64,000 nucleotides of DNA from assembly GCA_963663315.1 (NCBI GenBank), contig OY760176.1, positions 69,822 through 133,821 on the forward strand. The letters are read 5' to 3'. Source of the DNA: Arenicellales bacterium (GTDB taxonomy: Bacteria; Pseudomonadota; Gammaproteobacteria; Arenicellales; Poriferihabitantaceae). A program made the position numbers and the translations under genes. A model generated the notes under the pieces. The model did not search any database. It was not told the origin of the DNA and saw only the letters and a list, made by a program, of their open reading frames with translations. Below, piece by piece: positions 2,690-33,281 of the stretch (position 1 is its first letter; each line of letters opens with the position of its first letter).

Positions 2690-2692
2690 GTA

Positions 2693-4854: not shown

Positions 4855-6201
4855 TTAGTTTGCGGAGGAGCTCAGATATTCCGGCAGCCATAGTGCGATT
4901 TGCGGGAACATGACGATCAATATCAATCCGAAAAGCTGGATGACCATGAACTGCATCATTCCTCCATAGATATCCTTCAAATCCCATTCGGGTACCACGC
5001 CCTTGAGGAAATAGGCCGATAGAGCGACCGGCGGCGATAGCCAGGCGGTTTGCAGGTTTACTGCAACCAGAATTCCGAACCAGGTCAGATTGAATCCAAG
5101 TTTATCGATCAAGGGCAACAGGATCGGCACGATGATCAGGACAATCGGTACCCACTCCAACGGCCAGCCCAGCAAAAATATCAGCGCCATCACCATTGCG
5201 AGGATCGCGTAAGGCGACACATCCAGTGACAACAGAACCTCGGTAAGCATGGTCGGCGTGCCAAGTCTTGCGAACACGGATCCAAAGAAATTCGAGGCGG
5301 CGACGAGTATCAGTATCAGGACCGAAATTTCCAGAGTTTTGATCAGCGCATCCTTGAACCCCTGCCAGGACAGTTTTCTATAGGCTGCCGCGAGCAGGAA
5401 CGAGCCGAAGGCGCCCATGCCGGCGGCTTCTGTCGGGGTGGCAAATCCGAGCAGAATGCTGCCCAGTGCAAAACCGACCAGCGCCGCAGGCGGCACCAGC
5501 CCAAGGAAAAACTCCTTCCAGACATAGGACATTGAAGTCGGTTGCAGATCTTCTGGTAAAATCGGTCCCAGGGATGGATTGATCTGGCAGCGGATAAGCG
5601 CATAGCCGGTATACAGGAAGGCCAGCATAAACCCTGGAATTACGGCGGCGGCGAAAAGATCGGTGACCGGCACTTCCAGAATCGGCCCCATGACCACCAG
5701 CATGATACTGGGCGGGATCAGAATTCCCAACGTACCACCTGCGGTAATCGCTCCGGCCGAAAGTTGCACGTCGTAACCGGCGCGATTCATGGTTTTGGCC
5801 GCCATGATGCCGAGAATGGTCACCGAAGCGCCCACAATACCGGTGGCGGCGGCAAAAATGGTAGAGACAAAAAGCACTGCGATATAGAGGGAGCCACGGG
5901 TTCGGGACAGGGTTAACTGCACTGCGCGAAACAGCCGTTCCATAAGACCGGCCTGTTCCATCAGGATGCCCATAAAAATGAACAACGGCACCGCGGCCAG
6001 TGTCTGTTCCAGCATGACTCCGGAAAACTGGAATGTCATCAGATAAAAAACCAGTTCACCAAATCCCCACAGACCAAACGACATACCGAGGAAAATCAAT
6101 GTGAACGAAATCGGGAAGCCGATAAAAATGGCAAACAGCATGCAGGCGATCATGACCAACCCGATATACTCGGGGCGAAGGTTAGCAAGTAAATCTATCA
6201 T
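4855..6201 (-). CDS. dctM: TRAP transporter large permease (DctM family)
   Basis: Polytopic membrane protein. I prefer the ATG at 6201 (MIDLLANL...), which overlaps the dctQ stop in an ATGA junction. The track ORF begins 13 codons upstream at 6240. Confidence 0.9.
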   Translation of the reverse strand: MIDLLANLRPEYIGLVMIACMLFAIFIGFPISFTLIFLGMSFGLWGFGELVFYLMTFQFSGVMLEQTLAAVPLFIFMGILMEQAGLMERLFRAVQLTLSRTRGSLYIAVLFVSTIFAAATGIVGASVTILGIMAAKTMNRAGYDVQLSAGAITAGGTLGILIPPSIMLVVMGPILEVPVTDLFAAAVIPGFMLAFLYTGYALIRCQINPSLGPILPEDLQPTSMSYVWKEFFLGLVPPAALVGFALGSILLGFATPTEAAGMGAFGSFLLAAAYRKLSWQGFKDALIKTLEISVLILILVAASNFFGSVFARLGTPTMLTEVLLSLDVSPYAILAMVMALIFLLGWPLEWVPIVLIIVPILLPLIDKLGFNLTWFGILVAVNLQTAWLSPPVALSAYFLKGVVPEWDLKDIYGGMMQFMVIQLFGLILIVMFPQIALWLPEYLSSSAN

Positions 6202-6815
6202 CAGACTGGCCACCTGCCACGGGTGATTGCATACCAGCATTTAAGCAATTCGGATATACCCTGCATCAACAGCAGCACAATCCCGATCGGGATAGCGCTT
6301 TTTATCGGCCCCATGTAGGGCATCCAGGCCGTGTCCATGCCGCGTTCTCCCCGATAAATCGCGGTCCAGGCATAGTCAAACGACATCCACAGAAAAACCA
6401 GCAACCCGGGGAAATAAAAAATTACGTACAACGTACCATCCACGATTCCCTGGGTTCGTTGCGACCAGTTGCGGTAGATGAAATCGGCACGGATGTGTAC
6501 CCCGCGCGATAACGCATAACCAGCGCCCAGCATGAACATCGAGCCGTACAGCATGCGGCTGACATCGTACGCCCACATCGTCGGTGCAATAAAGAACTTG
6601 CGGGCGAGGACCTCATACACCATCGTCAGGCACATTGGCACCAGAAACCAGCAAATCAGTTTCCCCACCCACATACTCGTGCGGTCTATCCAGCTTATCA
6701 GACAGGCTACCCAGGGTGGCATATCGTCCGGCAGATTACCCGGATCCGCAGAACGGCGTTCCGCTATCAATTCGTCAGCGATCTCGAGTTCGTCTGGAAT
6801 GATTTCTTCAGCCAT
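6201..6815 (-). CDS. dctQ: TRAP transporter small permease (DctQ family)
   Basis: 204 aa with four predicted TM segments, immediately upstream of and overlapping dctM. Confidence 0.85.
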   Translation of the reverse strand: MAEEIIPDELEIADELIAERRSADPGNLPDDMPPWVACLISWIDRTSMWVGKLICWFLVPMCLTMVYEVLARKFFIAPTMWAYDVSRMLYGSMFMLGAGYALSRGVHIRADFIYRNWSQRTQGIVDGTLYVIFYFPGLLVFLWMSFDYAWTAIYRGERGMDTAWMPYMGPIKSAIPIGIVLLLMQGISELLKCWYAITRGRWPV

Positions 6816-6892
6816 GGCTGTCGTGACTTGAATGACGGGATGGCAGTATAACCCGCATTTAAGCAGAGTCGTGATTATTTATTAAGATAGCG

Positions 6893-6952
6893 CCAATACG
6901 GGCCCGAAAGCCCGTATTGGAAAATCTTGAACTGTGCCCTCGATTCGGGCAC
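6893..6952 (-). promoter_or_regulatory. Two intercistronic stem-loops between the binding-protein gene and dctQ (mRNA stabiliser or attenuating terminator)
   Basis: An 11-bp perfect stem CCAATACGGGC/GCCCGTATTGG (6893-6920) and a 6-bp stem GTGCCC/GGGCAC (6934-6952). Both lie just downstream of the dctP stop on the minus strand. Confidence 0.45.
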
Positions 6953-6963
6953 ATGACGCAGAA

Positions 6964-8073
6964 TTATTGTGCCATCTGCAATTGTTTGGCGTACGCCTGC
7001 CCGAGGGCCGCGTTTGACGTTTGTGCACCCGCCCAGAAAGGAACAGCGATGTCAGCAAATGCTTTTTGGGAATCCCAGACTTCGGCAAAGAACGCATTCT
7101 CGGCAGCATTTTTCTCAAGACTTGCCCTCGCCGCATTCATGTACGCCGGAAAATAATCTGCAGGTGTATCATGAAGAATGACGCCGTGATTTTCCGTCAG
7201 GTCTTTCAGCGCCTTGCCGTTTTCAAAGATCCGATAGCTAATGGACCTGATCAACGACGCATCGGCAGCAATATTGATCGCGTTTCGCTGGTATTCGGTC
7301 AAGCTGTTCCAGACATCGCCGTTGAAATAGATGTCAGCGTTGACCACGACCTGGTGAAGCCCTTGCAAGTAGTAGTGTTTCAGTACTTTGTGGAAGCCGA
7401 ATACACTATCCGGTTTTGGACAACACCATTCTGCGGCGTCAATGATGCCTTTTTCCAGGGCAGGAAGAATGTCACCCCCGGCCATCGCCACGCTCGCGAC
7501 GCCAATGTCTTTATAGGTCTGGCCGGGAATACCCGGAGGGGTACGGAAACGGTATTTTCGGAAATCTTCCATACTGTTGATCGGTTCCTTGAACCAGCCC
7601 AGCGCTTCAGGGCCAACAGGCTGGAGCATGACGCCATGGATATTCATACCCATTTCATCCCACAAGCGGTCATACAACTCGCGCCCTCCTGCATTCATGA
7701 ACCACGAGAGGAAGGCGATGTTATCGATACCCACGCCAGCGCCTGCAACCGGGGAACCGAACAGCATGGCGGCAGGGTGTTTGCCGGACCAGTAATGCGT
7801 CCAGGCGAATCCGGCTTCAACCAGACCTTTGTCTACCGCATCGAGAATATTTGAAACACTTACGATCGCCCCAGCAGGCAGCATCTCAAGTTGCACTTCG
7901 CCGTTGGTCAAGGAAGCGACATTTGCGGCAAAATCCTTCAGCATGACAGTTTCATCCGCTTTGGTTGTCACCGCAGTCTGGACCCGGATTTTTACCTCCG
8001 CGATTGCGCTGGCGCCGATAAGCATGGACAGTCCGATCAGCGTGGCTGCCACTCGTTTAAAAGTTTGTATCAT
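6964..8073 (-). CDS. dctP: TRAP transporter substrate-binding protein (DctP family)
   Basis: 369 aa. N-terminal signal peptide (LIGLSMLIGASAIA). First gene of the dctP-Q-M arrangement. Confidence 0.85.
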   Translation of the reverse strand: MIQTFKRVAATLIGLSMLIGASAIAEVKIRVQTAVTTKADETVMLKDFAANVASLTNGEVQLEMLPAGAIVSVSNILDAVDKGLVEAGFAWTHYWSGKHPAAMLFGSPVAGAGVGIDNIAFLSWFMNAGGRELYDRLWDEMGMNIHGVMLQPVGPEALGWFKEPINSMEDFRKYRFRTPPGIPGQTYKDIGVASVAMAGGDILPALEKGIIDAAEWCCPKPDSVFGFHKVLKHYYLQGLHQVVVNADIYFNGDVWNSLTEYQRNAINIAADASLIRSISYRIFENGKALKDLTENHGVILHDTPADYFPAYMNAARASLEKNAAENAFFAEVWDSQKAFADIAVPFWAGAQTSNAALGQAYAKQLQMAQ

Positions 8074-12157: not shown

Positions 12158-13116
12158 AAGCGATTACAGGAAAGAAATCCCTCCTGCTCCATGCCATGGT
12201 CATTGTGGTTCTTTTTTGTCTACAGTTCGTCCTGCCGGAATACTATCATCTCACCGCTACCCGGATAATGGTCCTGGCGGTTTTTGCCATGGGATTCAAT
12301 GTCCTTTTCGGCTATACCGGATTGCTTAGCCTCGGCCATGCCATGTTTTTCGCCACCGGGCTCTATGCCGCAGGCCTGACCGTCTATCATCTGGGATGGG
12401 GTGTGCTCCCCGCATTCGTTTTCGCCATATTCACAGGCGCCCTCGTCTCTGCATTGATCGGCGCCATCGCATTGCGTACCCGTGGTGTGGCATTCATGAT
12501 TGTCACGTTGATGTTTGCCCAGGTGGCTTACCTGGCCACTTTGTATTTCACGACTTATACCCGGGGTGATGAAGGACTGGTCCTTCCAGAGTCGGCACGA
12601 AGCATGGAATTTATGGGGTTGCAGTTAAACCTGACAGACCCTGCCACCCGCTATTTTATCGCGTTGACCCTGCTGACAGTCTGCCTGGTCATTGTTTATC
12701 GCCTGGTCAATGGTCCTACCGGCAGGGCATTGATCGCAATCCGCGAAAACGAAGATAGAACCCGTATGCTTGGCTACAATACCTTTGCCATAAAGCTCAA
12801 GGCTGTGGTCATCTCGGGAACACTGTCCGCTGCCGCAGGCGCCACCTATGCCCTGTTATTTGCCTATATCGGATCAACTTTCGCGAGCTTCCAGTATTCA
12901 ATCGATGCCCTGTTGTTCACCCTTGTGGGGGGCGCCGGTACTATCCTGGGCCCATTGCTGGGCAGTTTCGTGATGTTTTACCTGATTGATACCGCCAGTA
13001 ACTATACCTCTGCCTGGCTGCTTGTCACCGGGATAGTACTCATATTGCTCATCCTTTATTTTCCAAAAGGTATTCTCGGCACGGTGCGGGAACGGTGGAT
13101 AACCTGGTTGCCGTAA
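12154..13116 (+). CDS. ABC transporter permease (LivM-like)
   Basis: 320-aa polytopic protein. Second permease of the HAAT system. Confidence 0.85.
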   Translation: MKAITGKKSLLLHAMVIVVLFCLQFVLPEYYHLTATRIMVLAVFAMGFNVLFGYTGLLSLGHAMFFATGLYAAGLTVYHLGWGVLPAFVFAIFTGALVSALIGAIALRTRGVAFMIVTLMFAQVAYLATLYFTTYTRGDEGLVLPESARSMEFMGLQLNLTDPATRYFIALTLLTVCLVIVYRLVNGPTGRALIAIRENEDRTRMLGYNTFAIKLKAVVISGTLSAAAGATYALLFAYIGSTFASFQYSIDALLFTLVGGAGTILGPLLGSFVMFYLIDTASNYTSAWLLVTGIVLILLILYFPKGILGTVRERWITWLP

Positions 13117-13850: not shown

Positions 13851-14566
13851 GCGCCATGTTTTCAGCAAGCCATGTCAGCGCTGGTTATACCTCTGGCAGT
13901 AACGTGATCAGGGGTGTTTCACTTGAACTGGAAAGAGGAAAAGTGCTTTGCCTGCTGGGCCGAAACGGCGCCGGAAAAACATCATTGTTAAAAACGATCA
14001 TGGGTCTGATACCATTCAGCTCGGGGGAAATTTTACTGAATGGGCTCGAGTTGACAGCCATGAAGGCTCACCAGATTCCCGCTAACGGGGTGGGCTATGT
14101 TCCCCAGGGAAGACGGCTGTTTGCTGAACTGACCGTGGCAGAGAATCTTGAAATTGGCTTGTTGCTGAAAAAACAGGATAAGCGCCTTCTGGATCAGGCG
14201 CTGGACCTGTTCCCTGCCCTTGGAACGCGGCTCAAACAGATTTCAGGCACGCTGAGTGGAGGGGAACAACAAATGCTGGCCATGGCAAGGGCATTGTGTC
14301 TTCACCCTTCTCTGCTGCTGCTGGATGAACCCACCGAAGGGTTAATGCCCTCAATGATTTCAACTATCCGCAACGTCATCAGCCGACTCGCCGGGGAAGG
14401 GGTTGCCATACTTCTCGTGGAACAACGAATCGATGCTGTACTGGGAGTCGCTGACCGCATCGCATTTATGGAGAATGGGGTTCTGCATAAACCCCTTGAT
14501 GTGGCGGAAGTGGAACACGATGAAGAGCTGGTCAGGCGATATATCGGTATTGGACGGGCTGATTGA
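13847..14566 (+). CDS. ABC transporter ATP-binding protein (LivF-like)
   Basis: Walker A GRNGAGKTS, signature LSGGEQQML, Walker B LLLLDEP. Confidence 0.9.
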   Translation: MSAMFSASHVSAGYTSGSNVIRGVSLELERGKVLCLLGRNGAGKTSLLKTIMGLIPFSSGEILLNGLELTAMKAHQIPANGVGYVPQGRRLFAELTVAENLEIGLLLKKQDKRLLDQALDLFPALGTRLKQISGTLSGGEQQMLAMARALCLHPSLLLLDEPTEGLMPSMISTIRNVISRLAGEGVAILLVEQRIDAVLGVADRIAFMENGVLHKPLDVAEVEHDEELVRRYIGIGRAD

Positions 14567-15978
14567 AATCTGAATTTCCAAAACTGTTATTACTTGCTGG
14601 CTGGAGCTTTTGCCCGGCTGATGTTTTGGCCCACAGCGCCGAACGCGGGCTGATTCTGCTGCTTCCGACGGAACTTTATATAATCGGCGGGGCACTGGCC
14701 GTTTTGCTGTCTTTTTTTGTGTTAGCCGTCATCCCCCATGGTTTTATCAAACGCTTGTCCGGTTTCAGCCAGCCAATAAAAGGATTTTCAGGGCTGCCCG
14801 TTATTCCCTTTAGCCTGGGGTCTTTTCTGGTACTCGCCTTTTTGATCATCACGGGATTCTTCGGGTCAAGGGACCCATTGCTTAATCCCCTGCCCATCAC
14901 AACCTGGACATTGTTTTGGGTCTTGTTTACTCTCCTTCAATGTATTACGGGCAATCTCTGGACCCACGTCAACCCCTGGAGTGGTATAGCCTGGAGTATC
15001 CGGCGAATTTTTTGTCTCAAGTCCCGATATGCTTCACTACCGGAAGGCCTCGGATATTTCCCGGGGATCATCCTGTTTGCTGGATTTGCCTGGTTTGAAC
15101 TGGTCGACCCTGCTCCTGAAGACCCCCACCGACTTGCCTGGATGATTTTGGTCTATTGGCTGATTAACCTGATTGCGGTACTGATATACGGCGAGGACAA
15201 ATGGTTTGAGCGTGGCGAGCCCTTTTCCATTTTCTTTCGCTTAATCGGGAATCTTTCTCCATTGCAACCCTCCGGCAATGGCGCCAGCAGCAAAATCAGG
15301 ATAGCTGTTCCCGGGTTAACCATGGGCGCCCTGCCTGCCCTGCCTCTTTCCGGCACACTTTTCGTACTGTTAACCCTGAGTACTGTTTCCTTTGATGGCC
15401 TTTCAGGAACATTCTTCTGGTTGGGCATGATTGGAGTCAACCCGCTGGAGTTCCCTGGCAGAAGTGCAGTGATTCCCGACAATTCCCTGGGGTTGCTGGG
15501 TGGATTCGGGTTGCTGGTTTTTCTGTACCTGGTGTGCGTGTATGCGGGCTGGAAAATGGCGGGGGCAAAAGTCGGCTTTGTGGATGTCGCCGGGAGATTG
15601 GTGTACTCCATTATCCCCATATCCCTGGTTTTTCATTGCGCTCACTACCTGCCCCAGGTTCTGGTGAACGTTCAGTATGCTTTTCTTGCCTATAATGATC
15701 CGTTATCCCAGGGATCGAACATACTCGGCGCCAGTAACTTTTACGTTACCACTTCATTTTTCAATCATCTGGATGCGGTGGCCTTGATCTGGGGTTTGCA
15801 GACGACGATCATCGTCCTCGGGCATGTGACAGGTGTTTTCATCGCCCACGTTATCGCACTGGATATTTACCAAACCCCACGGGTCGCGGTAAAGAGTCAG
15901 GTGTTCCCGGCCATACTGATGGTGGGTTACACGGTGTTTGGATTGTGGCTATTGTCTACACCCGCTGCCGCACTATGA
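14563..15978 (+). CDS. Polytopic membrane protein of unknown function, translationally coupled to the ABC ATPase gene
   Basis: 471 aa with a signal-like N-terminus and about 10 or more hydrophobic segments. Its start overlaps the LivF-like stop by 4 nt. I recognise no family. Confidence 0.6.
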   Translation: MKSEFPKLLLLAGWSFCPADVLAHSAERGLILLLPTELYIIGGALAVLLSFFVLAVIPHGFIKRLSGFSQPIKGFSGLPVIPFSLGSFLVLAFLIITGFFGSRDPLLNPLPITTWTLFWVLFTLLQCITGNLWTHVNPWSGIAWSIRRIFCLKSRYASLPEGLGYFPGIILFAGFAWFELVDPAPEDPHRLAWMILVYWLINLIAVLIYGEDKWFERGEPFSIFFRLIGNLSPLQPSGNGASSKIRIAVPGLTMGALPALPLSGTLFVLLTLSTVSFDGLSGTFFWLGMIGVNPLEFPGRSAVIPDNSLGLLGGFGLLVFLYLVCVYAGWKMAGAKVGFVDVAGRLVYSIIPISLVFHCAHYLPQVLVNVQYAFLAYNDPLSQGSNILGASNFYVTTSFFNHLDAVALIWGLQTTIIVLGHVTGVFIAHVIALDIYQTPRVAVKSQVFPAILMVGYTVFGLWLLSTPAAAL

Positions 15979-16086
15979 AGTGCTAACTGATTGATTATAT
16001 TACTGTTTTTCTCTCATAATTTTATTGCCCCGTAGCAGAAACGCCCGTTTCTGTTCCCGCGGTGCTACGAAAACCGGGAGAAAATC

Positions 16087-17217
16087 ATGTCCAATACCCG
16101 TCTTACCCAGCGTCTGATCGACGCCCTCAAACCCCGCAAGAAAACCTTCGATCTCCGCGACACGGAACTCAAGGGTTTCGGTGTCCGCGTGCGCAGCTCC
16201 GGAATCAAACGCTATTTCGTGCAAAGCCAGCATGAGGGGACCCGTACCTGGCGCATCATCGGCAATGCCGCCGCAATGACCCTTGAGGAAGCGCGCTGCC
16301 GCGCACGGTCGGTCCTCGCGTCCCTACACAACGGTGAGGAGATCATTGCCGCCACGAACGAGGAGACGCGGTTCGGGGTGGTCGCGGAGAAGCTGTTCGA
16401 GGCTTGCGAGAGGCACTGGAAGGTCAGCACCAGAAAGGCCAACCGTTTTTATCTCAAGAACCAGATACTGCCCTGGTTCCGGAACATGCAGGTCGCCGGG
16501 ATCACCGAGCGGGACGTCAAGCAATGGCACGCCTCGCTCCATGCGACTCCCTTCGCCGCCGACCGCGCGGCGCCCGTGCTCAGCGTTATCCTCAGGCAGG
16601 CTGAGGTTTATGGCTATCGCCCGGAGGGTTCCAACCCCTGTGTCGGTATCAGGCGATACCGGCGGCGTGGCCGGGAACGCTTTCTCTCGCCGGAAGAAAT
16701 GCAAAGGCTCGGCGCCGTACTGAGTCGGCATGAACCGGATCATCCGCTTGAGGCCGCAACGATCCGGCTGCTACTCCTGACCGGGTGCCGCCGCAACGAA
16801 ATCCTGACACTCAAATGGTCCGACTACCGCGAGGGGCACCTGTATCTGCGCGACTCCAAGACCGGGCCGAGGACGGTCTGGCTGTCGTCCCCGGCCCGCG
16901 GGATACTGGATGGGCTTCCCCGGCGTGGCGCGTGGATATTCCCTGCACGGCGAAGGCGGGGTTTCTTTTGCCGGACCATGATCCAATATTACTGGTCGAA
17001 GGTTCGGGGCGAGGCCGGACTTGGCGATGTCCGGTTGCATGACCTCCGGCACAGCTACGCCTCGGTGGCCCTCCTGAATGGTGCGACGGTCCCCACGATT
17101 GCCAAGCTCCTCGGCCACAACGATACGGCCACGACGCTGAAATACACGCATCTCAACCAAACTGCGGTCCGCGCGGCGGTCGAGACTGTTGCTCCGATCC
17201 TCGCCGGGGAGGCGTGA
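16087..17217 (+). CDS. Tyrosine recombinase/integrase (P4-like, DUF4102-type arm-binding N-terminus), type 1 of a doublet
   Basis: 376 aa. N-terminus LKPRKKTFDLRDTELKGFGVRV. Catalytic Arg in LLLLTGCRRNE, HDLRHSYAS, and Tyr in LKYTH. Confidence 0.92.
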   Translation: MSNTRLTQRLIDALKPRKKTFDLRDTELKGFGVRVRSSGIKRYFVQSQHEGTRTWRIIGNAAAMTLEEARCRARSVLASLHNGEEIIAATNEETRFGVVAEKLFEACERHWKVSTRKANRFYLKNQILPWFRNMQVAGITERDVKQWHASLHATPFAADRAAPVLSVILRQAEVYGYRPEGSNPCVGIRRYRRRGRERFLSPEEMQRLGAVLSRHEPDHPLEAATIRLLLLTGCRRNEILTLKWSDYREGHLYLRDSKTGPRTVWLSSPARGILDGLPRRGAWIFPARRRRGFFCRTMIQYYWSKVRGEAGLGDVRLHDLRHSYASVALLNGATVPTIAKLLGHNDTATTLKYTHLNQTAVRAAVETVAPILAGEA

Positions 17218-17220
17218 ACG

Positions 17221-18105
17221 ATGCCAGAAAATACTACGAGAAGAACGACGAGAAGAATACGACTGACCGACTCCAATGCGGGCAGGTTCAGACCGGGCGA
17301 GTCCGAGTACACGGTCCGGGACACGAAGACACCCGGCCTCGGTGTCCGGATCAAGCCATCAGGTTATCGGACCTGGGTGTATCACGGCAACGCCGCCGGC
17401 AGTCCCAGGCGCCACAGTCTTGGCCCCGTCAGCCTGAAAACAGTAGAGGATGCGCGGCTCGAATGTCTTGAAATCGGCTTGAAGGAACAGATCAGTGGCG
17501 CTCCGGATGAAACCGTGAAATTGGCCGTGCCCAAATTCCGTGACTTCGTCGAGGGAGAATGGAAGACGGCGCGTTACGACCATTTTAAACCCTCTACCAG
17601 GAAAGGCGTGGACAACGCTCTGAAAACCCAACTTCTGCCGAATTTCGGGACACTGCCGCTCGACCGGCTCACGCGCTCCCGTGTCAACCGGTGGTTTGAT
17701 CAATACAGCCGCAGTGCGCCGGGCGGCGCCAATCATGCCCTCGTTATCCTGTCAGGGATCCTGAATCATGCGATAGTCTGCGGGCACATCACGATGAATC
17801 CAGCCCGGGGTGTAAGGCGGAACCCGAGACGGAAGATGACCCGGTTTCTTTCTCGGGAGGAAATCCGCCGCCTTCACGCGGTGCTTGACGCCTGCGTGGC
17901 TGAACGTCCGGTGAACGCTCCAGCGGCGGATATCATCCGTCTCCTTCTGCTCACCGGATGCCGGCGCGGCGAGATCGTGAACCTGCAATGGCGCGAGGTG
18001 GGCGAGGACATCCTGGAACTTATGGACAGCAAGACCGGTCCCCGGACAGTGTTTCTCAGCCCGAAAGCAAAAGCCGTCATAGAACGACAGCCCCGACCGG
18101 ACTGA
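17221..18105 (+). pseudogene. Tyrosine integrase, type 2 of the doublet, 3'-truncated by an IS3-family insertion
   Basis: Collinear with the intact 34918..36093 protein up to ...IERQPRP. The frame then runs into the IS terminal TGA (18103-18105). The HxxR and Tyr catalytic blocks are missing. Confidence 0.85.
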
Positions 18106-18152
18106 ATCGCCCCGGGTTTGTCGGAGGCTCCATTTCTTGAGAGGATGGAGTA

Positions 18153-19372
<1,220 letters not shown>

Positions 19373-19411
19373 CTCAAACAACCGAGTCTCCGGAATTCCC
19401 GGGGCGATTCA

Positions 19412-19660
19412 TTGGAGCCGTTTGAGCGGTTCGCGGAATCGAACGCCACTATCGACGAATACGCCGCCATCATCGCGGAAGCCGATGAAGACGGTATTCT
19501 CCGGGCTCGAGTTCTCTTACCCAATAACGAAGCAATCACGTTGACCGTCGAGCCGTCCCGGCTCCTGTTTGGCGTCGACCGTGAGGCCTACAAACTGGCG
19601 TTGAACACATGTCGGGGTGCGGCAGCCTCAAAACTTTCGGTTGATGAGGAGGCTGCCTGA
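19412..19660 (+). pseudogene. 5'-truncated ORF remnant upstream of hsdR
   Basis: The frame is open from the first base after the IS end and has no ATG (the track uses TTG). Its stop overlaps the hsdR ATG (TGATG). Probably the tail of a type I R-M operon gene cut by the IS. Confidence 0.5.
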
Positions 19661-22600
19661 TGGCGTTCATCTCAGAAGCCGGTGTCGAGGCCGCACTACT
19701 CGATCAGCTCGAAGGCCTCGGTTATACCCGTCTTCCGGACGGCATCGCGGGACCCGACGGCTCCGCGCCCGAGCGCGCGTCCTATTCCGACGTGGTGCTG
19801 GTGGACCGCCTGAAACGGGCCGTGGATCGTCTCAACCCGGATATCCCGTCCGAGGCACGCCAAGATGCGTTGAAGAAGGTCATTGCCGACGAGACCCCGT
19901 CTCTGATCGAAGAGAACCGGCGTATTCACCGTGCCCTGGTCGAAGGCATCGATGTGGAGTTCTACGTCGAGGACGGCACCATACGCGGCGACAAGGTCCG
20001 TCTGATCGATTTCGGCGATCCGTCGGCGAACGACTGGCTGGCAGTGGACCAGTTCACGGTCATCCAACACGGCAACAACCGCCGTCCGGACGTGGTGGTG
20101 TTCGTCAACGGCCTGCCGCTGGGAGTGATCGAAATCAAGAACCCCGGCACCGAGAGTGCCACGCTAACCGGCGCCTACAACCAGTTGCAGACCTACAAGT
20201 CACAGATTCCGTCCCTGTTTCGAACCAATGCCGCGTTGGTGACTTCTGACGGCCTGATGGCGCGGATCGGCTCTCTGACAGCTAATGAAGAACGGTTCAT
20301 GCCATGGCGAACGACGGATGGCACCGATGTCGCGGCCAAGGGCAGTCCCGAGATGTCCGTGCTGATCGAGGGCGTGTTCGAACAGCGGCGGTTCCTCGAT
20401 CTAATCCGCGATTTCACGGTCTTCGGCGATACCGGATCGGGTATTTCCAAGATCATCGCGGGCTATCATCAGTATCACGCCGTGCGACACGCCGTGGAAA
20501 GCACGGTGGGTGCTACCTCGCCCGAAGGCAACCGCAAGGTGGGCGTGATCTGGCACACCCAGGGTTCCGGCAAGAGCCTTCTCATGGCGTTCTACGCGGG
20601 CCAACTGGTTCGACGACCGGAACTGCAAAACCCGACCATCGTTGTCATGACCGACCGCAACGACCTGGACGATCAGTTGTTCGGCACCTTCTCCATGTAC
20701 CGCGACCTGATCCGTCAAACGCCAATCCAGGCGGAAAACCGTGAGGATCTGCAAAAGGCGCTGAACCGGGCTTCGGGCGGGGTCATATTCACCACCATCC
20801 AGAAGTTTGCTCCCGCCAGGAGCGGGGCGGACTATCCTGCGCTGACGGACCGGCGCAACGTGGTGGTCATCGCCGATGAAGCGCACCGCAGCCAATATGG
20901 CTTCAAGGCAAGGGTTGAACAGAAGACCGGCGAGATCGCCTATGGCTTCGCCAAGTACCTGCGCGATGCGCTGCCCAACGCCTCTTTTATCGGGTTTACC
21001 GGAACGCCGATTGAGAAGGACGACGCCAACACGCCCGCCGTGTTCGGCCAGTACATCGACGTTTACGACATCAGCCGGGCGGTCGAGGACGGCGCAACGG
21101 TGCCGATTTATTACGAAAGCCGGTTGGCGCGCATCGAACTGCCCGATGAGGAAAAACCCAGAATCGACGCCGAGATCGAGGAATTGACCGAGGACGAGGC
21201 GATAACGGAGCAGGAGCGTCTGAAGCGTAAATGGTCGACCGTCGAAGCACTCGTCGGCGCGGAGAAGCGCCTCAAGATGGTGGCGGAAGATCTGGTGCGG
21301 CATTTCGAGGACCGAGTCGAGGCGATGGAAGGCAAGGCCATGGTGGTCTGCATGAGCCGCCGCATTTGCGTCGCTTTGTACAAAGAGATCATCGCCCTTC
21401 GCCCCGATTGGCATTCCGACGACGATAAGGGCGGCGCGATCAAAATCGTCATGACCGGCTCGGCAGCCGATCCTGAAGCCTGGCAGCCCTATGTGGGCAA
21501 CAAGACCCGCCGGGACCTGCTTGCCAAACGGGCGAAGGACCCGAGCGACCCGCTCATGCTGGTTATCGTCTGCGACATGTGGTTGACCGGCTTCGATGCC
21601 CCCTCCATGCACACCATGTACATCGACAAGCCCATGCGGGGTCATGGGCTGATGCAGGCCATCGCGCGGGTCAATAGGGTGTTCCAGGACAAGCCTGCCG
21701 GATTGGTGGTCGACTACATCGGCGTCGCTCAGAACCTGAAGAATGCGCTGGGCCAGTATTCGGCGGCGGACCAGAAGAACGCGGGGATCGACGAGGCCGA
21801 TGCCGTCGCAATGATGCTCGAAAAGTACGACGTGGTGCGCACCATGTACCACGGCTTCGATTACATGCGGGGCCTGGCCGGCACGCCTCAAGAGCGGCTT
21901 ATCGCCATGGCGGAGGCGATTGAGTGGATTCTTGAACGCCAGCACAAGGCCGCCGAGAGGGAAACGACGGAGGAGGCCAGGAAGAAGGCTCATCGTCGCT
22001 ACCAGGACGAAGTGCTCGCCTTGTCCAAGGCCTTTGCCTTTGCCGCCGCCAGTGACGACGCCCGCCAGATCCGCGACGAAGTCGGATTCTTCCAGACGGT
22101 CCGTGCCGCACTGGTCAAGTCGGCCCAAGGAACCGGCAAATCAGTCGCCGATCAGCAATTGGCGGTTCAACAGATCATCGACCGCGCCGTCGTCTCGACG
22201 GAGATCGTAGATATTTTGGCGGCAGCCGGCTTGGGAACGCCTGACATTTCAATCCTGTCGGAGGAGTTTCTGGCCGAAGTCCAGCAGATGGAGAAAAAGA
22301 ACCTTGCACTGGAAGCCTTGAAAAAGCTGCTCAATGACGAGATCACCTCCCGCAGCCGCTCGAACGTGGTGGAGACCAAACGGTTCTCAGACCGCCTGGA
22401 GCAGGCCGTGGCCCGTTACCACACCAATGCCATCAGCACGGTCGAGGTCCTCCAGGAACTGATCAATCTTGCCCGGGAAATTAGGGAAGCCCGGAAGCGC
22501 GGTGAAGACGAGGGCTTGTCCACGGACGAGGTGGCTTTCTACGACGCCCTGGCGGAGAACGAAAGTGCCATTGAGGTGATGGGTAATGACTCCCTCAAGC

Positions 22601-22803
22601 TCATCGCCCATGAACTGCTGAGTAGCCTCAAGTCCAACATCACGGTTGATTGGTCACACAGGGAGAGCGCTCGGGCGCGAATGCGGGTTCTGGTCAAACG
22701 TATCCTGCGCCACCATGGATATCCGCCAGACCTGCAAGATGCTGCCGTGCAGACGGTTCTGCAACAGGCCGAAGCCTTGTCCGCGCAATGGGCTACATCA
22801 TAA
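19660..22803 (+). CDS. hsdR: Type I restriction endonuclease subunit R
   Basis: 1047 aa. Typical N-terminus [24 protein letters not shown]2 helicase motifs ([22 protein letters not shown]) and a long helical C-terminal domain. No hsdM or hsdS in the window. Confidence 0.93.
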
Positions 22804-23375: not shown

Positions 23376-23614
23376 CGACCGAGTGAAAGCGTGTCTACGG
23401 GTTCCGGTCGCCGAAAGAATCGTCCGAGAGGGCGATCCCTGGAGAGGCTGCCTTCACCCGTCTTCGCGACATATACCGGTGTACTTTCAAGAAAGCCGCG
23501 GCCGCTCCAGCGCGTTTGTGCGAACTACGCCGGGTGCGTCGCTGCGTAACGGCTGCGATCCCGGCACGAGACGGGTTTGCGGCTCATAACAATGTTAGGG
23601 AGGATGTGTCTTCG

Positions 23615-24739
23615 ATGAAAAAAATCAGGGTGGCCATCGCTGGTGTCGGCAACTGCGCGAGTTCCTTGGTACAAGGGTTGGAATACTACCGGGGCCGCAA
23701 CGAGGCGTCATTCAGCGGTCTAATGAACGCAAAGATCGGCGATTGGGGGCCCAGCGATATCGAGATCGTGGCCGCCTTTGATGTCGACCGCCGTAAGGTC
23801 GGCAAGCGGGTGGAAAAAGCGATTTTCGCCAGACCCAACTGCACCAAAATATTCCAGAGCGCTCTGCCCGTATCCGAGGTCGTGGTGCGGATGGGACCGG
23901 TTCTCGATGGCGTCGCGCCTCACATGGCCGACTACCCGGATGACGAGGCTTTCCGCCCCTCTGACGAAGAACCGGTCGACGTCGTCCAAGTCCTCAAGGA
24001 CGCTCGGGCCGAAGTTCTGGTCTGCTACATGCCGGTTGGCTCGGAACAGGCGGTTCGGCACTATGCCAGGGCTTGCCTGGAGGCCAGCGTGGCCATGGTC
24101 AACTGCGTTCCGGTGTTTATGGCTTCCGACCCCGAATGGGCTGGGAAATTTCGCGATGCCGGCCTGCCCATCGTCGGCGACGACATCAAAAGCCAGGTCG
24201 GCGCCACCATCGTGCACCGGACCCTCGCTCGCCTGTTCGGAGACCGCGGCGTACCGCTTGATCGAACCTACCAGTTGAACACGGGCGGCAACACGGATTT
24301 TCTCAACATGAAGGCGCTCGACCGCTTGAAGTCCAAGAAAGTTTCCAAGACGGAATCCGTGCAGTCCCAGTTGGACGAACGGCTGGATTCCCGGAACATT
24401 CATATCGGGCCGTCCGATTACGTGCCGTGGCAGGACGACAACAAGGTTGCCTTCATCCGTATGGAAGGCCGCGGTTTCGGGGATGTGCCGTTGGAGTTGG
24501 AGCTCAGGCTGTCGGTCCAGGATTCACCCAACAGCGCGGGCGTGGTCATCGATGCGATTCGGTGCGCCAAGCTGGGGTTGGAGCGCGGCATCGGCGGTCC
24601 TTTGGAGGCGGCCTCCGCCTACTACATGAAGAGCCCGCCCAATCAGATGCGCGATTCGCTGGCCTATGAATTGACGGGTTCGTTTATCCAAGACAGAAAG
24701 GCCGGCGAGGGGACATCTCAAGCGGTCGCCGATGAATAG
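23615..24739 (+). CDS. ino1: myo-Inositol-1-phosphate synthase (short prokaryotic type)
   Basis: 374 aa counted from the ATG at 23615, which has GGGAGGA 10 nt upstream. MKKIRVAIAGVGNCASSLVQG Rossmann start, GDDIKSQVGAT, NTGGNTDF and SKKVSKTES blocks. Confidence 0.85.
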   Translation: MKKIRVAIAGVGNCASSLVQGLEYYRGRNEASFSGLMNAKIGDWGPSDIEIVAAFDVDRRKVGKRVEKAIFARPNCTKIFQSALPVSEVVVRMGPVLDGVAPHMADYPDDEAFRPSDEEPVDVVQVLKDARAEVLVCYMPVGSEQAVRHYARACLEASVAMVNCVPVFMASDPEWAGKFRDAGLPIVGDDIKSQVGATIVHRTLARLFGDRGVPLDRTYQLNTGGNTDFLNMKALDRLKSKKVSKTESVQSQLDERLDSRNIHIGPSDYVPWQDDNKVAFIRMEGRGFGDVPLELELRLSVQDSPNSAGVVIDAIRCAKLGLERGIGGPLEAASAYYMKSPPNQMRDSLAYELTGSFIQDRKAGEGTSQAVADE

Positions 24740-25604
24740 TCTCGCCGGTCAGGCCGCCAACAACGGTCCGGGCGGTGGCAACACAATCCGGACCGTGGAC
24801 TCGCCCTGGGTGGAACGGCTGCTCACGCTCCACCGCCAAGTGCGGAGCGCGGTCGCGAAAGCCGGCCTCGAAGCAATCGGGTCCAAGAACCCGAAGGGTG
24901 ACGACGTTAAACGGTTCGACCTTGCCGCCAATGACGCGGCATTGGCCGTTCTAAGGCGACTCCAAGTGCCGGTTGTCGTCGATTCCGAGGAGAGCGGGCG
25001 CCAGGAAATCGGCTCCGGCACACCGCGGCATCGCCTCGTCCTCGATCCGGTGGACGGGTCCGACAACTGGGCGCGGGGAATGCCGTTATCGGCCTTGTCC
25101 TGTGCCGTGCTGCCAATCGACGCCCCTCTCCAGCCCGATTGGGTCGAGGCGGCCCTGGTCGGGCCGCTCGAACAGGAAACGCCCCTGATCGCGTTCAAGG
25201 GCTCCGGGGCCTGGCGCGGGAACGAGCGTCTCGCAACATCGCAGCTTGGCACCATTGCCAGGGCCACGATTTCGGTCGAACTCAACCATCATTCTCCGTC
25301 GCCGGGGCTTGTCCACCTAATCGCGGCCGCCAGGGGAGTGCGGTGCTATGGCTGCGCTTCGCGCGCCATCTCCCTGGTCGCCGAGGGCGCGACCGACGCC
25401 CATGTGGACGTGCGTGGCCGTCTGACGGTGGAAAGCTACCTCGCCGCTGCGCGGTTGGTGATCGAGGCGGGAGGCTGGATTGTTGGCCTCGATGGCGCGC
25501 CCCTGGCGGCGCCGGAAGGCTTGACCGACCGCGTCGGCCTGATTGCGGCGGCGAGCCGGGAGCTCTGTGAGGAAATCGTGGAACTCCTGGGCGATGCAGG
25601 ATAG
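24732..25604 (+). CDS. Inositol-monophosphatase-family phosphatase
   Basis: 290 aa. Metal-binding DSEESG and LDPVDGSDNW motifs. C-terminal AAARLVIEAGG. Overlaps ino1 by 8 nt. Confidence 0.8.
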   Translation: MNSLAGQAANNGPGGGNTIRTVDSPWVERLLTLHRQVRSAVAKAGLEAIGSKNPKGDDVKRFDLAANDAALAVLRRLQVPVVVDSEESGRQEIGSGTPRHRLVLDPVDGSDNWARGMPLSALSCAVLPIDAPLQPDWVEAALVGPLEQETPLIAFKGSGAWRGNERLATSQLGTIARATISVELNHHSPSPGLVHLIAAARGVRCYGCASRAISLVAEGATDAHVDVRGRLTVESYLAAARLVIEAGGWIVGLDGAPLAAPEGLTDRVGLIAAASRELCEEIVELLGDAG

Positions 25605-25741
25605 TGGCTTGGCAAACCCGGCGCCGGAGGGGGCGCTGATTATGGCAGCCGGGCTGGGATCGCGGTTTCGACCGGGAACCAAGACACCGAAGCCCCTGAC
25701 CAGGGTGCTCGGACTGAGCCTCGCCGAACGGGTCGTCTGCA
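25594..25741 (+). pseudogene. 5' fragment of a second nucleotidyltransferase (IPCT-domain) gene
   Basis: ATG at 25594 overlaps the IMPase stop. Encodes ...ALIMAAGLGSRFRPGTKTPKPLTRVLGLSLAERVVC, paralogous to residues 15-52 of the 26819 protein. Homology stops abruptly at 25741. Confidence 0.7.
25683..25741 (+). repeat. 59-bp direct repeat, copy 1 (57/59 identical to 26911..26969)
   Basis: GACACCGAAGCCCCTGA(C)CA(G)GGTGCTCGGACTGAGCCTCGCCGAACGGGTCGTCTGCA, read directly from the sequence. Confidence 0.9.
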
Positions 25742-25847
25742 TGTTCGGGCCGCCAACGACAAGCTCGGCCGTGGCTCGTGTCGTTTCCCCGGCAACGAAG
25801 TGTCTGAGAATTTACACCAACCGACCTCGGTCTGGGCTCAATATCAT

Positions 25848-26759
25848 ATGTACGATGTCTGCATAATTGGCCACGTCACAAGGGATATTGGCGCATTTAA
25901 CCGACGGCCCGGGAGCGAGATGCCGGGCGGAGTTGTCAACTACGCGGGGATCGCGCTTCAGAGCCTAGGCCTCAAGACCGCGGTCATCACCAAAGCGGCA
26001 AATGTCGATGCCGACGAGATCCTGGGACAGCTGCGGAAAATTGGCGTCAAGGTCCATTGGCTTGCTAGCCGGTCGACCACGGTCTTTGAGAATAATTACT
26101 CGGGAAACGGACTCGAATTCAGGAATCAGAAAGTCCGGTCGATCGCTAATACTTTCGACCCCCGCTGTCTGCCACCGGTTTGGGCCAAGACGTTTTATCT
26201 CGGTCCGCTCACGAATGGCGAAATGTCCGCCGAATTTGTGAAAGCGGTGTCCGAGCGGGACGGTCGCGTGTTTTTGGACGTTCAAGGCTTTCTCAGAGAG
26301 GTCGAGAACGGAAAGGTCCGCTTGGTCGACTGGCCCGAGAAGCGGGAGGTGCTCGCTCATGTCCACGTCTTGAAGGCGAACCTCGCCGAGGCCCGATTCC
26401 TGTCGGGAGAGAAAGAACCCGAGCGCGCGGCGCGAAAGCTTGTCGAACTCGGGCCGGAGGAGGTCATCTTGACGTTCGGCGGCAACGGTTCTCTTATCCT
26501 TGCAGGGGGGCGCCTCTACGACATTCCAGCCTATCCGCCGCGGGTTGTCGCCGACCCTACCGGCTGCGGCGACACCTACAGCGCCGGTTACATCTTTCAC
26601 CGGCTGCAATCGGATGACATCGGAGCCGCCGGCCGGTTCGCGGCTGCCCTGGCGGCGCTCAAACTGGAACGTCATGGACCGTTCACGGGCGACGCGCAAG
26701 AGGTCCAAGCTCGCCTGAGAGAAGCCGAGGCCATGGCGGAGTCGGACCGCCAAGAATGA
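25848..26759 (+). CDS. PfkB/ribokinase-family carbohydrate kinase (candidate inositol kinase)
   Basis: N-terminal GG region MPGGVVNYAG and C-terminal DPTGCGDTYSAGYI (DTxGAGD-type). I prefer the ATG at 25848. The track uses GTG at 25800. Confidence 0.8.
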   Translation: MYDVCIIGHVTRDIGAFNRRPGSEMPGGVVNYAGIALQSLGLKTAVITKAANVDADEILGQLRKIGVKVHWLASRSTTVFENNYSGNGLEFRNQKVRSIANTFDPRCLPPVWAKTFYLGPLTNGEMSAEFVKAVSERDGRVFLDVQGFLREVENGKVRLVDWPEKREVLAHVHVLKANLAEARFLSGEKEPERAARKLVELGPEEVILTFGGNGSLILAGGRLYDIPAYPPRVVADPTGCGDTYSAGYIFHRLQSDDIGAAGRFAAALAALKLERHGPFTGDAQEVQARLREAEAMAESDRQE

Positions 26760-26818
26760 TGCCAAATCTGACGGCCCGGCCAACCGCGCGTCGTGCGATA
26801 AAATCATCGGAAGTCTGA

Positions 26819-28183
26819 GTGATGGTGGGAACTAACGACCAGATAGCGACCCCGGAGGTTGCGGTGATGCTTGCTGCTGGACTTGGGTCACGCCTATTTC
26901 CGCAAACCACGACACCGAAGCCCCTGATCAAGGTGCTCGGACTGAGCCTCGCCGAACGGGTCGTCTGCACGTTGCTGGACGCAGGCGTCCGGCGGGTCCT
27001 CGTCACTCTGGGTCATGAGGCCGAATCAGTGAAGGAGCATTTTTCCGGCATCGCCCGGCGTCGCGGCGTCACGATCGACTTCATCGAAGCCGAGGGCTGG
27101 GAGCAGGGCAACGGCGCCAGCGCCCTGGCGGCCAAGGGTCGCACCGGCGAGGCGCCCTTCTTCCTGGTCATGATCGATCATCTGTTCAATCCCGCAATCG
27201 CACGGGCCCTGGCCAACGACCCGCCGGCAGTGGGCGAACTTCGCCTCGCCGTGGACCGCGACAAAGGCGCCATCTTCGATCTCGACGATGTCACCCGGGT
27301 CAAGATCGACGACGGACGCATTAAGGAAATCGAGAAGAACCTCGACGATTGGGATGCCGGCGACACCGGGGTCATGCTTTGCACGACCGGCCTGTTCGAA
27401 GGTCTCGAGCGCGCGGCGGCAAGCAACAAGCACGGGCTTTCCGACGGGCTCAGGGAACTGGCGCGCGAGGGGCGGGCGAGAACCGTCGACGTGACTGGAA
27501 TGCGGTGGCTCGACGTGGACACGCCCGACGCCTTGCGTGAAGCCGAACGACGTCTGATGCGCGACCAGGGCCGCAAGACCCGGGACGGGCCGGTGTCGCG
27601 CCATCTCAACCGCCCGGTTTCCCGATGGCTCAGCCGCTATCTGGTACGCACGGCGGTAACGCCCAACCAAGTCTCCCTGGCCTCGTGGATACTGTCCTGC
27701 AGTGCTGCGGGGTTGATGGCATTGGGCGGCTATCCCGCCCTGGCCGCCGGTGGCGTGCTGGCGCAACTGGCCTCGATCATCGACGGTTGCGATGGCGAGA
27801 TCGCCCGGCTGAAGCATTCCCAGAGCGAGTTCGGCGGCTGGTTCGACGCGGTCCTCGATCGGTATGCCGACGCCGCCCTGTTGTTCGGCCTGATGTGGCA
27901 CGAATTCGCTGCGACCGGCACAACCCTGTCCGTCGTGCTGGGGTTCGCGGCAATTGTCGGGTCGTTCCTAAACAGCTATACGGCGGACAAGTACGACGGG
28001 CTGATGGCTCAAAGGTTGCGAGGCGTCTCATACGTCCGGCTGGGCCGTGACGTTCGGGTGTTCGTCATCTTCCTTGGCGCCATCCTGAACCAGCCATTAT
28101 TCACCCTGGGTGTCGTTGCATTGGTGATGAATTTGGAAGTAGTTCGAAGGATCGTGATGTACAGGCGCGCTGCAGCGTCATAG
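26819..28183 (+). CDS. Bifunctional nucleotidyltransferase / CDP-alcohol phosphatidyltransferase (IPCT/DIPPS-like)
   Basis: 454 aa. N-terminal AAGLGSRL...KPL sugar-phosphate nucleotidyltransferase motif. The C-terminal membrane domain has an exact DG-x2-AR-x8-G-x3-D-x3-D signature (DGEIAR LKHSQSEF G GWF D AVL D). Confidence 0.85.
   Translation: MMVGTNDQIATPEVAVMLAAGLGSRLFPQTTTPKPLIKVLGLSLAERVVCTLLDAGVRRVLVTLGHEAESVKEHFSGIARRRGVTIDFIEAEGWEQGNGASALAAKGRTGEAPFFLVMIDHLFNPAIARALANDPPAVGELRLAVDRDKGAIFDLDDVTRVKIDDGRIKEIEKNLDDWDAGDTGVMLCTTGLFEGLERAAASNKHGLSDGLRELAREGRARTVDVTGMRWLDVDTPDALREAERRLMRDQGRKTRDGPVSRHLNRPVSRWLSRYLVRTAVTPNQVSLASWILSCSAAGLMALGGYPALAAGGVLAQLASIIDGCDGEIARLKHSQSEFGGWFDAVLDRYADAALLFGLMWHEFAATGTTLSVVLGFAAIVGSFLNSYTADKYDGLMAQRLRGVSYVRLGRDVRVFVIFLGAILNQPLFTLGVVALVMNLEVVRRIVMYRRAAAS
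26911..26969 (+). repeat. 59-bp direct repeat, copy 2
   Basis: Lies within the 5' part of the IPCT/DIPPS-like gene. Has two mismatches to copy 1. Confidence 0.9.
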
Positions 28184-31963: not shown

Positions 31964-32004
31964 ACTGAATCGCCCCGGGAATTCCGGAGACTCGGTTGTT
32001 TGAG

Positions 32005-33224
<1,220 letters not shown>

Positions 33225-33281
33225 TACTCCATCCTCTCAAGAAATGGAGCCTCCGACAAACCCGGGCGATTCACCATCGAT

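Follow-up and report, generated by a model that had tools for sequence, protein, structure and literature searches.

Two genes for tyrosine recombinases stand one directly behind the other at the edge of a genomic island in an Arenicellales bacterium, and a diverged version of the same pair lies inverted farther along. This integrase doublet is the subject of this report, and the window in which it was analyzed is a stretch of 64,000 nucleotides (contig OY760176.1, positions 69,822 to 133,821). In copy A, the type 1 gene, A1 (16087-17217, plus strand), encodes an intact protein of 376 amino acids, and the type 2 gene, A2 (also A2'; 17221-18105, plus strand), encodes 294 amino acids and is cut at codon 294. 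Copy B (37221-34918) is inverted with respect to copy A and keeps the order of type 1 then type 2, with B1 (36097-37221, minus strand; 374 amino acids) and B2 (34918-36093, minus strand; 391 amino acids) both intact. Three nucleotides separate stop from start in each copy, the junctions reading TGA-ACG-ATG in copy A and TGA-GCC-ATG in copy B. An earlier note on this DNA had described exactly these open reading frames (ORFs): a complete integrase and a second one after a 3-nt spacer, and an inverted unit of two intact genes with the same order and spacer. It had also called the partners homologous yet diverged, which agrees with amino-acid identities of 56% for both A1/B1 and A2/B2 and with a DNA identity of only about 64% between the two units. 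Type 1 and type 2 proteins are about 37% identical to each other.

All four proteins have an Arm-DNA-bind_3 (DUF4102) domain, a SAM-like central domain and a Phage_integrase domain. The match to Pfam PF13356 (DUF4102) is clear in A1 (E = 1e-10), B1 (6e-10) and B2 (1e-6), and A2 scores 24.6 bits, slightly below the 27-bit cut-off; the arm-binding domains of type 2 score more weakly than those of type 1. A1 contains the full R-K-H-R-H-Y set of catalytic residues. A2 retains only the first R and the K, the H-R-H-Y region having been lost through truncation. The earlier note had attributed this cut to an insertion sequence (IS) of the IS3 family that supplies the stop codon, and the mapped start of IS3 copy A at 18103, with TGAATCGCC, bears this out: its first three bases are the TGA that ends A2. 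The intact A2 orthologue in a sister genome, L034, has 392 amino acids, and the lost 3' part of A2 has no match anywhere else in the window. Copy A is now disabled, as IS3 took away the catalytic part of A2.

The pair is found far beyond the window. A genome scan with B2 revealed abutting type 1 and type 2 genes in several Alphaproteobacteria genomes and on one Bryobacterales contig. More than 100 protein clusters are 80-95% identical to B2, all from metagenome assemblies, and dozens are 88-100% identical to A1, likewise all metagenomic, with relatives on Mb-scale contigs. The ordered pair was seen at loci L001, L003, L004, L005, L007, L016-L023 and L034-L038 and on plasmids L024-L033. Searches of complete plasmids with tblastn returned pairs from Shewanella, Vibrio, Aliivibrio, Photobacterium, Paracoccus, Tritonibacter, Leisingera and several sphingomonads, joined mostly by a 4-bp overlap. 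Across all loci, in both Alpha- and Gammaproteobacteria, the gene junction is either a 3-nt gap or a 4-bp overlap, and the partner gene adjoins in every context fetched, save where an IS or a frameshift broke the pair. Some genomes hold several copies; those of L001 and L002 face each other on one contig, 140 kb apart. At least two matches to A1 were present in 28 of the 48 plasmid records that matched it. A phage origin is unsupported: among 79 viral loci with a related integrase, only one had a tandem pair.

In a tree built for 14 doublets (28 proteins), one clade (bootstrap 97/100) unites the first genes of window copies A and B, L004, Shewanella, Vibrio, Photobacterium and Aliivibrio, and a separate clade (also 97/100) unites the second genes of that set, with identical internal branching in the two. 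The distances among first genes track those among second genes (Mantel r = 0.90, p = 2e-4, 12 doublets). The doublet proteins have 375-500 amino acids with DUF4102, and R-K-H-R-H-Y is complete in A1, B1, B2 and 24 of the 25 other aligned proteins. The sole active-site change among the 27 intact doublet proteins is a Gly in place of the second catalytic Arg in the second integrase of Paracoccus versutus pTAV1 (L030 7260-8441). Because many unrelated genomes and plasmids contain the pair in this order and its genes fall into two orthologous, co-diverging clades, the doublet is an old, widely shared and conserved unit, not a local or recent duplication. The earlier note had reached this view of a conserved module from the window and had proposed a database search for the adjacent pair; the pairing proved to be conserved elsewhere.

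That copy A marks the true left edge of the island, as the same note held, follows from the end of homology to an empty-site genome at 15965 and from the rise in GC content there (about 0.51 to about 0.61 at 16 kb, dropping again at 40 kb). Two empty-site genomes, L040 and L041, were located through protein homologues, their host membrane proteins being 92% and 85% identical to that of the window. In both, the membrane-protein gene is directly followed by genes for a decarboxylase, a GST and a glyoxalase. The L040 homology (93%) stops at 15965, which sets the junction at 15965/15966. The target-side half of this junction is ACACC plus 7 nt (ACACCCGCTGCC; 15958-15969, plus strand), within the final codons (T-P-A...) of the gene for the host membrane protein (14563-15978). 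The left end of the element, our candidate attachment (att) core, follows at 15970-16003 (plus strand) as a hairpin, GCACT-ATGA-AGTGC, and then TAACTGATTGATTATATTAC. This hairpin lies about 115 nt upstream of A1, and host homology ends 4 nt before it. Because the window's ACA CCC GCT encodes the host's T-P-A, with only synonymous changes relative to L040, and because the hairpin is missing from the empty sites of L040 and L041, ACACC-N7 is target DNA and the element starts at the hairpin. An exact-DNA search of metagenome contigs for the empty site gave no match, and a protein-based scan of them gave only a cut contig. The window contains no tRNA gene.

The same junction recurs at other sites. 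Seven A-lineage copies in five contexts, with mutually unrelated left flanks, all read ACACC-N5-7 followed by GCACY, a loop of 3-4 nt, RGTGC and TAACTGATTGAT, with TAAC after the stem; homology between the window and L035, for example, begins at 15969. The stem shows compensatory changes and the loop varies (ATGA, TGGC, TTGC, AAGC, TTT, AAGA). The motif occurs once per locus, exclusively upstream of type 1. A-lineage copies that are 88-98% identical use at least five targets that have only ACACC-N7 in common, and an identical A-type protein is found at two different sites. Three of the targets are 3' ends of host ORFs, which stop at the hairpin in the window and L034, in L035 (after a DEAD helicase gene) and in L037 (after a DAO oxidoreductase gene). 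In the remaining contexts, the copy follows the cargo of a preceding copy (L038b) or lies inside another copy (L036, L038a). The L004 copy interrupts an amidohydrolase gene, of which the Pfam match covers profile positions 1-167 of 345.

The nested insertions provide both target and occupied site at base resolution. In L036 (8842-9888, minus strand) and L038a (L038 437-1483, minus strand), what looks like a "348-aa integrase" upstream of the core proves to be a type 2 gene, inverted and truncated at its 5' end (89-92% DNA identity), into which an A-type element has inserted, and the two samples share the junction. The uninterrupted type 2 target reads gtgatACACCcaggtcc followed by GATAACCTGATGG, whereas the occupied site reads gtgatACACCcaggtcc followed by GCACCAAGCGGTGCTAACTGATTGAT; the ACACC here is demonstrably target DNA. 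The corresponding position in A2 is an internal ACACC-N7 pseudo-target at 17362-17385 (minus strand; codons TWVYH). Such an insertion could reflect conflict between elements or a mere look-alike of the target. In copy B, L004, Vibrio, Photobacterium and Aliivibrio, ACACC and a lineage-specific hairpin lie 129-165 nt upstream of type 1, and the combination is present in at least six independent lineages, against a chance expectation of about 1% per lineage.

Between hairpin and start codon, the leader of copy A (15991-16086, plus strand) has a -35 TTGATT and a -10 CATAAT inside GTTTTTCTCTCATAAT, a second hairpin (16036-16053), CCCGCGGTGCTAC at 16056-16068 and the ribosome-binding site GGAGAAAA. 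The promoter-like TTGATT-18-CATAAT overlaps a conserved motif, GTTTTTCTCTC. Copy B (leader and candidate core, 37242-37353, minus strand) has ACACCTC-TGCACA-GAA-TGTGCA at 37332-37353, CGTTTTTTCTCTG at 37285-37297, a hairpin at 37251-37275 and CCCGGTTGCAAC at 37242-37253. Homology between L003 and copy B starts exactly at ACACCTC. The candidate cores of the two copies differ (GCACT-ATGA-AGTGC versus TGCACA-GAA-TGTGCA), and upstream of B1 no arm-type repeats were found at k = 8. The leader motifs themselves are common to copy A, copy B, L004 and the Shewanella plasmids, despite protein identities of about 40%.

What lies beyond type 2 differs from copy to copy. The element of L034 occupies the same site as that of the window (host flank 97% and A1 98% identical), and after type 2 it carries a ribbon-helix-helix gene, Eco57I-, XhoI- and DpnII-type restriction genes, a Piwi (prokaryotic Argonaute, pAgo) gene and, about 7 kb past type 2, a TrwC relaxase gene. 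A DUF3991-Toprim gene is present in L004, an SSB-Toprim-YAcAr set accompanies the B-type copies, and plasmid copies adjoin SSB, antirestriction and relaxase genes; the window itself retains no relaxase. Related copies cease to be homologous at or slightly past the end of type 2, in the B lineage, in Shewanella and among A-lineage copies alike, and the next gene varies by locus (toxin-antitoxin (TA), restriction-modification (RM), IS or hypothetical). The cargo past the break includes hsdMS, TA pairs (RelE, BrnTA, HipA, MqsA), type VI secretion genes, bacteriocins, SIR2-STAND, AbiTii, KAP NTPase, DndB and GmrSD. Each A-lineage locus also has a conserved sequence of 26-46 nt, CCAACTCTATCCACTGTTTGTAAACGATTTCAAGTAAA, once and always on the plus strand after type 2 (L034 18343-18388, L035 12384-12428, L037 about 12370-12410, L038 about 3935-3975). 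Its distance from the end of type 2 is 32-74 nt in L035, L037 and L038a and 6 kb in L034, where RM and pAgo cargo fills the gap; the L038a motif has an inverted 23-bp copy of itself behind it.

The intact element of L034, which occupies the same site and carries restriction systems, a pAgo and a TrwC relaxase, favours one interpretation of the doublet, to which we assign a probability of roughly 60%: it would serve a family of integrative mobilizable or conjugative elements (IMEs/ICEs) as their integration module, positioned at the left end. Relaxase and/or transfer genes, which such elements carry within them, are present in relatives. Of the flanking att sites and empty sites that would also be expected, the left junction and the empty sites were seen and the right junction was not found, about 7 kb of host genes being absent beyond the island in the window. 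We propose that two paralogous P4/SXT-type (DUF4102) recombinases would be made from one tightly coupled operon and would act together on an att site whose putative core is the hairpin about 115-165 nt upstream of type 1, beside the operon promoter. Crossover at this hairpin would join an ACACC-N7 target to the hairpin end of the element. The integrated doublet would then stand at the left end, reading inward, with cargo, mostly defence genes, beginning straight after type 2, and the attR would be predicted to join the other arm of the element to host sequence near GGGTGAGGGCC. The elements would excise and transfer. In the window, the module resident in the 3' end of the host's membrane-protein gene is copy A; copy B belongs to a second, diverged lineage.

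Several observations weigh against this proposal. Neither an attR nor a further copy of the core turned up at any of the loci, be it with k-mers of the left junction or with strict and relaxed motif scans, and no sequence evidence of excised circles was seen. One attR candidate, at 20739 in L004, was rejected because the rest of the amidohydrolase gene does not follow it, and for the sequence that precedes the second tandem copy of L038 no other match was found. Element-type DNA lies on both sides of copy B and of every plasmid copy, so that integration there is putative. The hairpin, with a stem of 5 bp and a loop of 3-4 nt, is shorter than usual core sites. At their shared host site, the window and L034 have different N7 and loop sequences, which a classical homology-dependent overlap does not explain. 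Related integrases also occur singly, as 20 of the 48 plasmid records have a single match. Finally, the argument that both proteins are needed comes from co-inheritance and coupling.

Tn916 and CTnDOT recombine in a heterology-tolerant manner. By analogy, the variable N7 and loop at one host site suggest that the doublet may tolerate heterology as these elements do, or as do the SEs (integrative elements that circularize with a strand bias). Further, co-inheritance, coupling and intact active sites in both proteins suggest that both are probably needed and may act as a heteromer in the manner of XerC/XerD. The most far-reaching form of the proposal is an obligate heteromeric integrase of two arm-binding P4/SXT enzymes with a XerC/XerD-like division of strands, a hairpin core with a variable coupling sequence and many ACACC-N7 targets, defining a so far unnamed class of elements. 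This we advance only tentatively, and judge it to be somewhat doubtful.

The two enzymes might instead divide their labour, one serving the att site upstream of type 1 while the other resolves multimers of a circular or plasmid form, exchanges cargo in the slot behind type 2 or controls directionality. The recurrent loss of homology at the type 2 3' end, past which the cargo differs, would suit such a role, as would the 6 kb of cargo in L034 between type 2 and a motif that is sited 32-74 nt away elsewhere, the many copies on plasmids, where resolution would make sense, and the weaker arm-binding domain of type 2. We nevertheless regard this scheme as unlikely, at perhaps the level of an outside contender. 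There is no conserved second site across lineages, and tight co-divergence and translational coupling suit physical partners better. A palindrome, TGCCGTC-TGAAATC-GACGGCA (34893-34913), 4 nt past the B2 stop, resembles a terminator on the plus strand, with a T-run, and most likely serves, as judged from its sequence, to terminate convergent cargo transcription. B-lineage homology does break at or after it. It was rejected as a recombination site, as it occurs only there, is missing in L020-L023, lacks an equivalent in the majority of lineages and receives a terminator score.

Taken singly, each doublet protein fits the Int_SXT/P4 subgroup in its sequence. The domains are those of that subgroup (DUF4102, SAM-like core-binding and catalytic, complete except in the truncated A2), genes are often entered at their very 3' end, and the integrase gene sits beside att at one end of the island. 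The described members, in contrast, have a single integrase, usually with a small excisionase, whereas here two linked, coupled and co-evolving paralogues are found, and the target appears to be a short motif in several genes instead of one fixed gene. The pair also has a likeness to several known multi-recombinase systems. XerC/XerD, a paralogous pair whose heterotetramer cuts one strand pair with each partner, offers the best mechanistic analogy for an obligate pair, though an analogy only: the xer genes are unlinked, their products have no arm-binding domain and act on dif, and the NCBIfam Xer models score the doublet proteins at 50-70 bits against cut-offs of 280-335.

The SEs (Tn6283) have an intA-tfp-intB operon plus srap, Tfp being large and non-catalytic. 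They and the GMT systems share with the doublet two catalytic, translationally coupled recombinases at the left end beside attL, defence or resistance cargo and several targets. One could thus see in the doublet a reduced relative of SE/GMT, or of Tn916/CTnDOT, tolerant of heterology, with a variable coupling sequence and many targets and possibly moving by copy-out. The use of at least five targets by A-type copies that are 88-98% identical, the identical protein at two sites, the variable N7 and loop, the insertion into another element's integrase gene and the several copies per genome would all accord with this, as would the operon layout given in the SE papers. Against it, the doublet genes abut with no Tfp between them, and beside no copy is there a Tfp/GinC-like non-catalytic protein, a Srap/GinD gene or any other conserved fourth gene. 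The NCBIfam GmtZ model (NF047926) gives B2 21.8 bits against a cut-off of 600 and does not match A1, A2 or B1. No terminal inverted repeats were found, and in a published survey SEs were restricted to Gammaproteobacteria and GInt elements to Gamma- and Betaproteobacteria, neither being found in Alphaproteobacteria. We therefore consider such a kinship improbable. Matches to B2 on Enterobacterales plasmids were single integrases of about 30% identity with no doublets, and were unusable as SE comparators.

GInt islands likewise carry a multi-recombinase module at their left end, but theirs is ginA-ginB-ginC-ginD, including the non-catalytic GinC and GinD, whereas the doublet has two recombinases and no conserved third or fourth gene. 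RIT elements resemble it in having adjacent, overlapping tyrosine recombinase genes inherited as a unit; these are three simple recombinases (RitA, B, C) without an arm-binding domain and with little cargo. A true RIT trio (416, 316 and 331 amino acids, with SAM_1/SAM_4 and catalytic domains) is present at L023 1-3158, a few kb upstream of a B-type doublet. Tn554 has two adjacent tyrosine recombinases, TnpA and TnpB, both of which are required for transposition; it differs in its Gram-positive hosts, a long TnpB, a third gene, tnpC, and the absence of DUF4102, and is set apart here by description and not by sequence. The bipartite module (BIM) of Cupriavidus pairs one recombinase with a conserved SMC-like non-recombinase and was ruled out as a known doublet, since both of our genes are recombinases. 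With the defining genes of GInt, RIT and SE absent, and Tn554 distinguished by description, the doublet falls outside the families that the earlier note had named as its nearest comparisons. That note also knew of no characterized element defined by a DUF4102/P4-type doublet, and our full-text literature search found no published description of one in proteobacteria; in that search, two tyrosine integrases were mentioned only for certain actinophages, in notes on their genomes.

A second, unrelated integrase doublet (432 and 417/419 amino acids, 4-bp overlap) stands back to back with B-type copies on the minus strand at L017 5135-7683, L018 1053-3601, L021 5064-7618, L022 5123-7677 and L001 about 5277-7603. 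Its junction falls in the 3' end of YAcAr (window equivalent 38246-38259). The two genes of this doublet are closer to each other than to any other gene (bootstrap 100/100), so the pairing of integrases arose more than once, independently.

The rest of the island records a composite history. The inserted block spans 15966-43095: L040 homology resumes only at 43096, at a Cas6 gene (43097-43783, Pfam E = 4e-56) that L040 also has, and about 7 kb (about 7.2 kb) of L040 host genes, from the decarboxylase to VapB, is missing from the window. No other cas genes were recognized near Cas6, and there is no repeat array in the window. Between the doublets lie IS3 copy A, an HsdR gene, an inositol-phosphate/CDP-alcohol transferase set, remnants of IS256 and IS21, IS3 copy B and a fragment of a gene without a known family. 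IS3 copy A (18103-19411, plus strand; OrfA 18153-18476, OrfB 18473-19372) and the inverted copy B (31966-33273, minus strand) are identical over 1301 nt; their one difference is that, in the outer inverted repeat, copy A has CCCC and copy B, with one base fewer, has CCC. A target-site duplication is lacking at both, whether each is taken by itself or they are paired as an inversion would predict, so there has been at least one deletion or rearrangement linked to an IS. An IS3-mediated inversion was rejected as the origin of the mirrored layout, because neither a simple insertion nor an inversion through homologous recombination accounts for the flanking triplets (GAC/TTG and AAC/CCA).

The HsdR gene is an orphan type I restriction gene by its Pfam match (19660-22803, plus strand; 1047 amino acids), and it forms part of the copy B cargo. 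L023 has an HsdR gene some 9 kb downstream of type 2, to which the window gene is 96% identical at the 3' end. The window lacks hsdM and hsdS; with IS3 copy A 248 bp upstream of the HsdR start, these partners were probably deleted. The adjoining cargo (23516-28183) comprises a myo-inositol-1-phosphate synthase, an inositol monophosphatase-family protein, a PfkB kinase and a fused nucleotidyltransferase/CDP-alcohol phosphatidyltransferase, and resembles a pathway for a solute or lipid derived from CDP-inositol. The IS256 (28819-30194) and IS21 remnants (30195-31968) are 99.7-99.9% identical to copies in high-GC Alphaproteobacteria, and 28198-31968 as a whole, including the segment 28198-28819, is 98.6-99.9% identical to L001, L002, L017 and L018. 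Since the host flanks of the window have about 51% GC, this similarity points to a recent cross-lineage transfer of the region. A 530-bp stretch (34322-34851) is shared by the window and L003 and is absent from L016-L019; with a faint trace of a type 2 C-terminus at 34300-34365 (22 amino acids, E = 0.03), it may be what is left of an earlier copy.

On its other side, copy B is accompanied by a backbone (37520-40013) consisting of orf111 (37520-37855, plus strand; of no family), a YAcAr/SLOG gene (38197-39273, minus strand) and an N-terminally truncated DUF7146-Toprim gene (39403-39948, minus strand). Orf111 was dismissed as an excisionase, having no Pfam or PHROG match. The order SSB-Toprim-YAcAr-orf100-type1-type2 is common to L016, L020 and L023, and within this backbone L016 has two group II intron reverse transcriptase genes (1688-3202 and 6110-7624). 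The window's backbone ends at 40013 beside an IS3-family element (40098-41458), after which a RES-domain gene and its upstream winged helix-turn-helix partner (41617-42845) precede the return of host homology. The surroundings of copy B match L023 on both sides, the backbone up to 40013 at 90% and the HsdR 3' end at 96%. These matches, with the near-identity of IS21 and IS256 to their counterparts in high-GC Alphaproteobacteria, mark copy B, its backbone and its cargo as a recent import from a high-GC alphaproteobacterial donor that now occupies the cargo position of copy A.

The mirrored layout calls for one proviso. An inverted copy is indeed present, as the earlier note stated, but the mirrored arrangement is not architectural: elsewhere, the doublet is single, at one end (L034, L035, L037), in direct tandem (L038) or nested (L036). 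The layout looks like an incidental product of accretion and IS-linked rearrangement and not like design. The idea that the inverted copies are working ends of one composite or invertible 21-kb segment draws on the copies facing each other here and, 140 kb apart, in L001/L002. It is very improbable, as A2 is without its catalytic half, the candidate cores of A and B differ, copy A of L034 has other cargo and no inverted partner within 10 kb, orientation varies and copy B brings its own backbone. That two unrelated integrases merely piled up at one hotspot is close to refuted, common as accretion is (witness the second doublet and the RIT trio beside B-type copies), by the constant order and 3-nt/4-bp junction in Alpha- and Gammaproteobacteria and by the parallel, co-diverging clades.

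P4/SXT-type arm-binding integrases are the standard single-enzyme entry route of genomic islands and ICEs. The doublet is a two-integrase form of the arm-binding island integrase that can be tested directly, and the target and junction pairs available at base resolution ease the design of one-gene versus two-gene excision and integration tests. A widespread, ancient form that always consists of two co-evolving catalytic paralogues would add a new architecture to the P4/SXT group. It would also give annotators a signature for island borders, namely two abutting DUF4102 integrases preceded by ACACC-N7 and a hairpin, and would point to a vehicle that moves defence genes (RM, pAgo, SIR2-STAND, Abi and TA systems) between plasmids and chromosomes. 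If the integrase is in truth an obligate heteromer, then a so far unnamed class of integrative elements would be ferrying defence cargo in Alpha- and Gammaproteobacteria, a single family that enters chromosomes, conjugative plasmids and even the integrase genes of rival copies.

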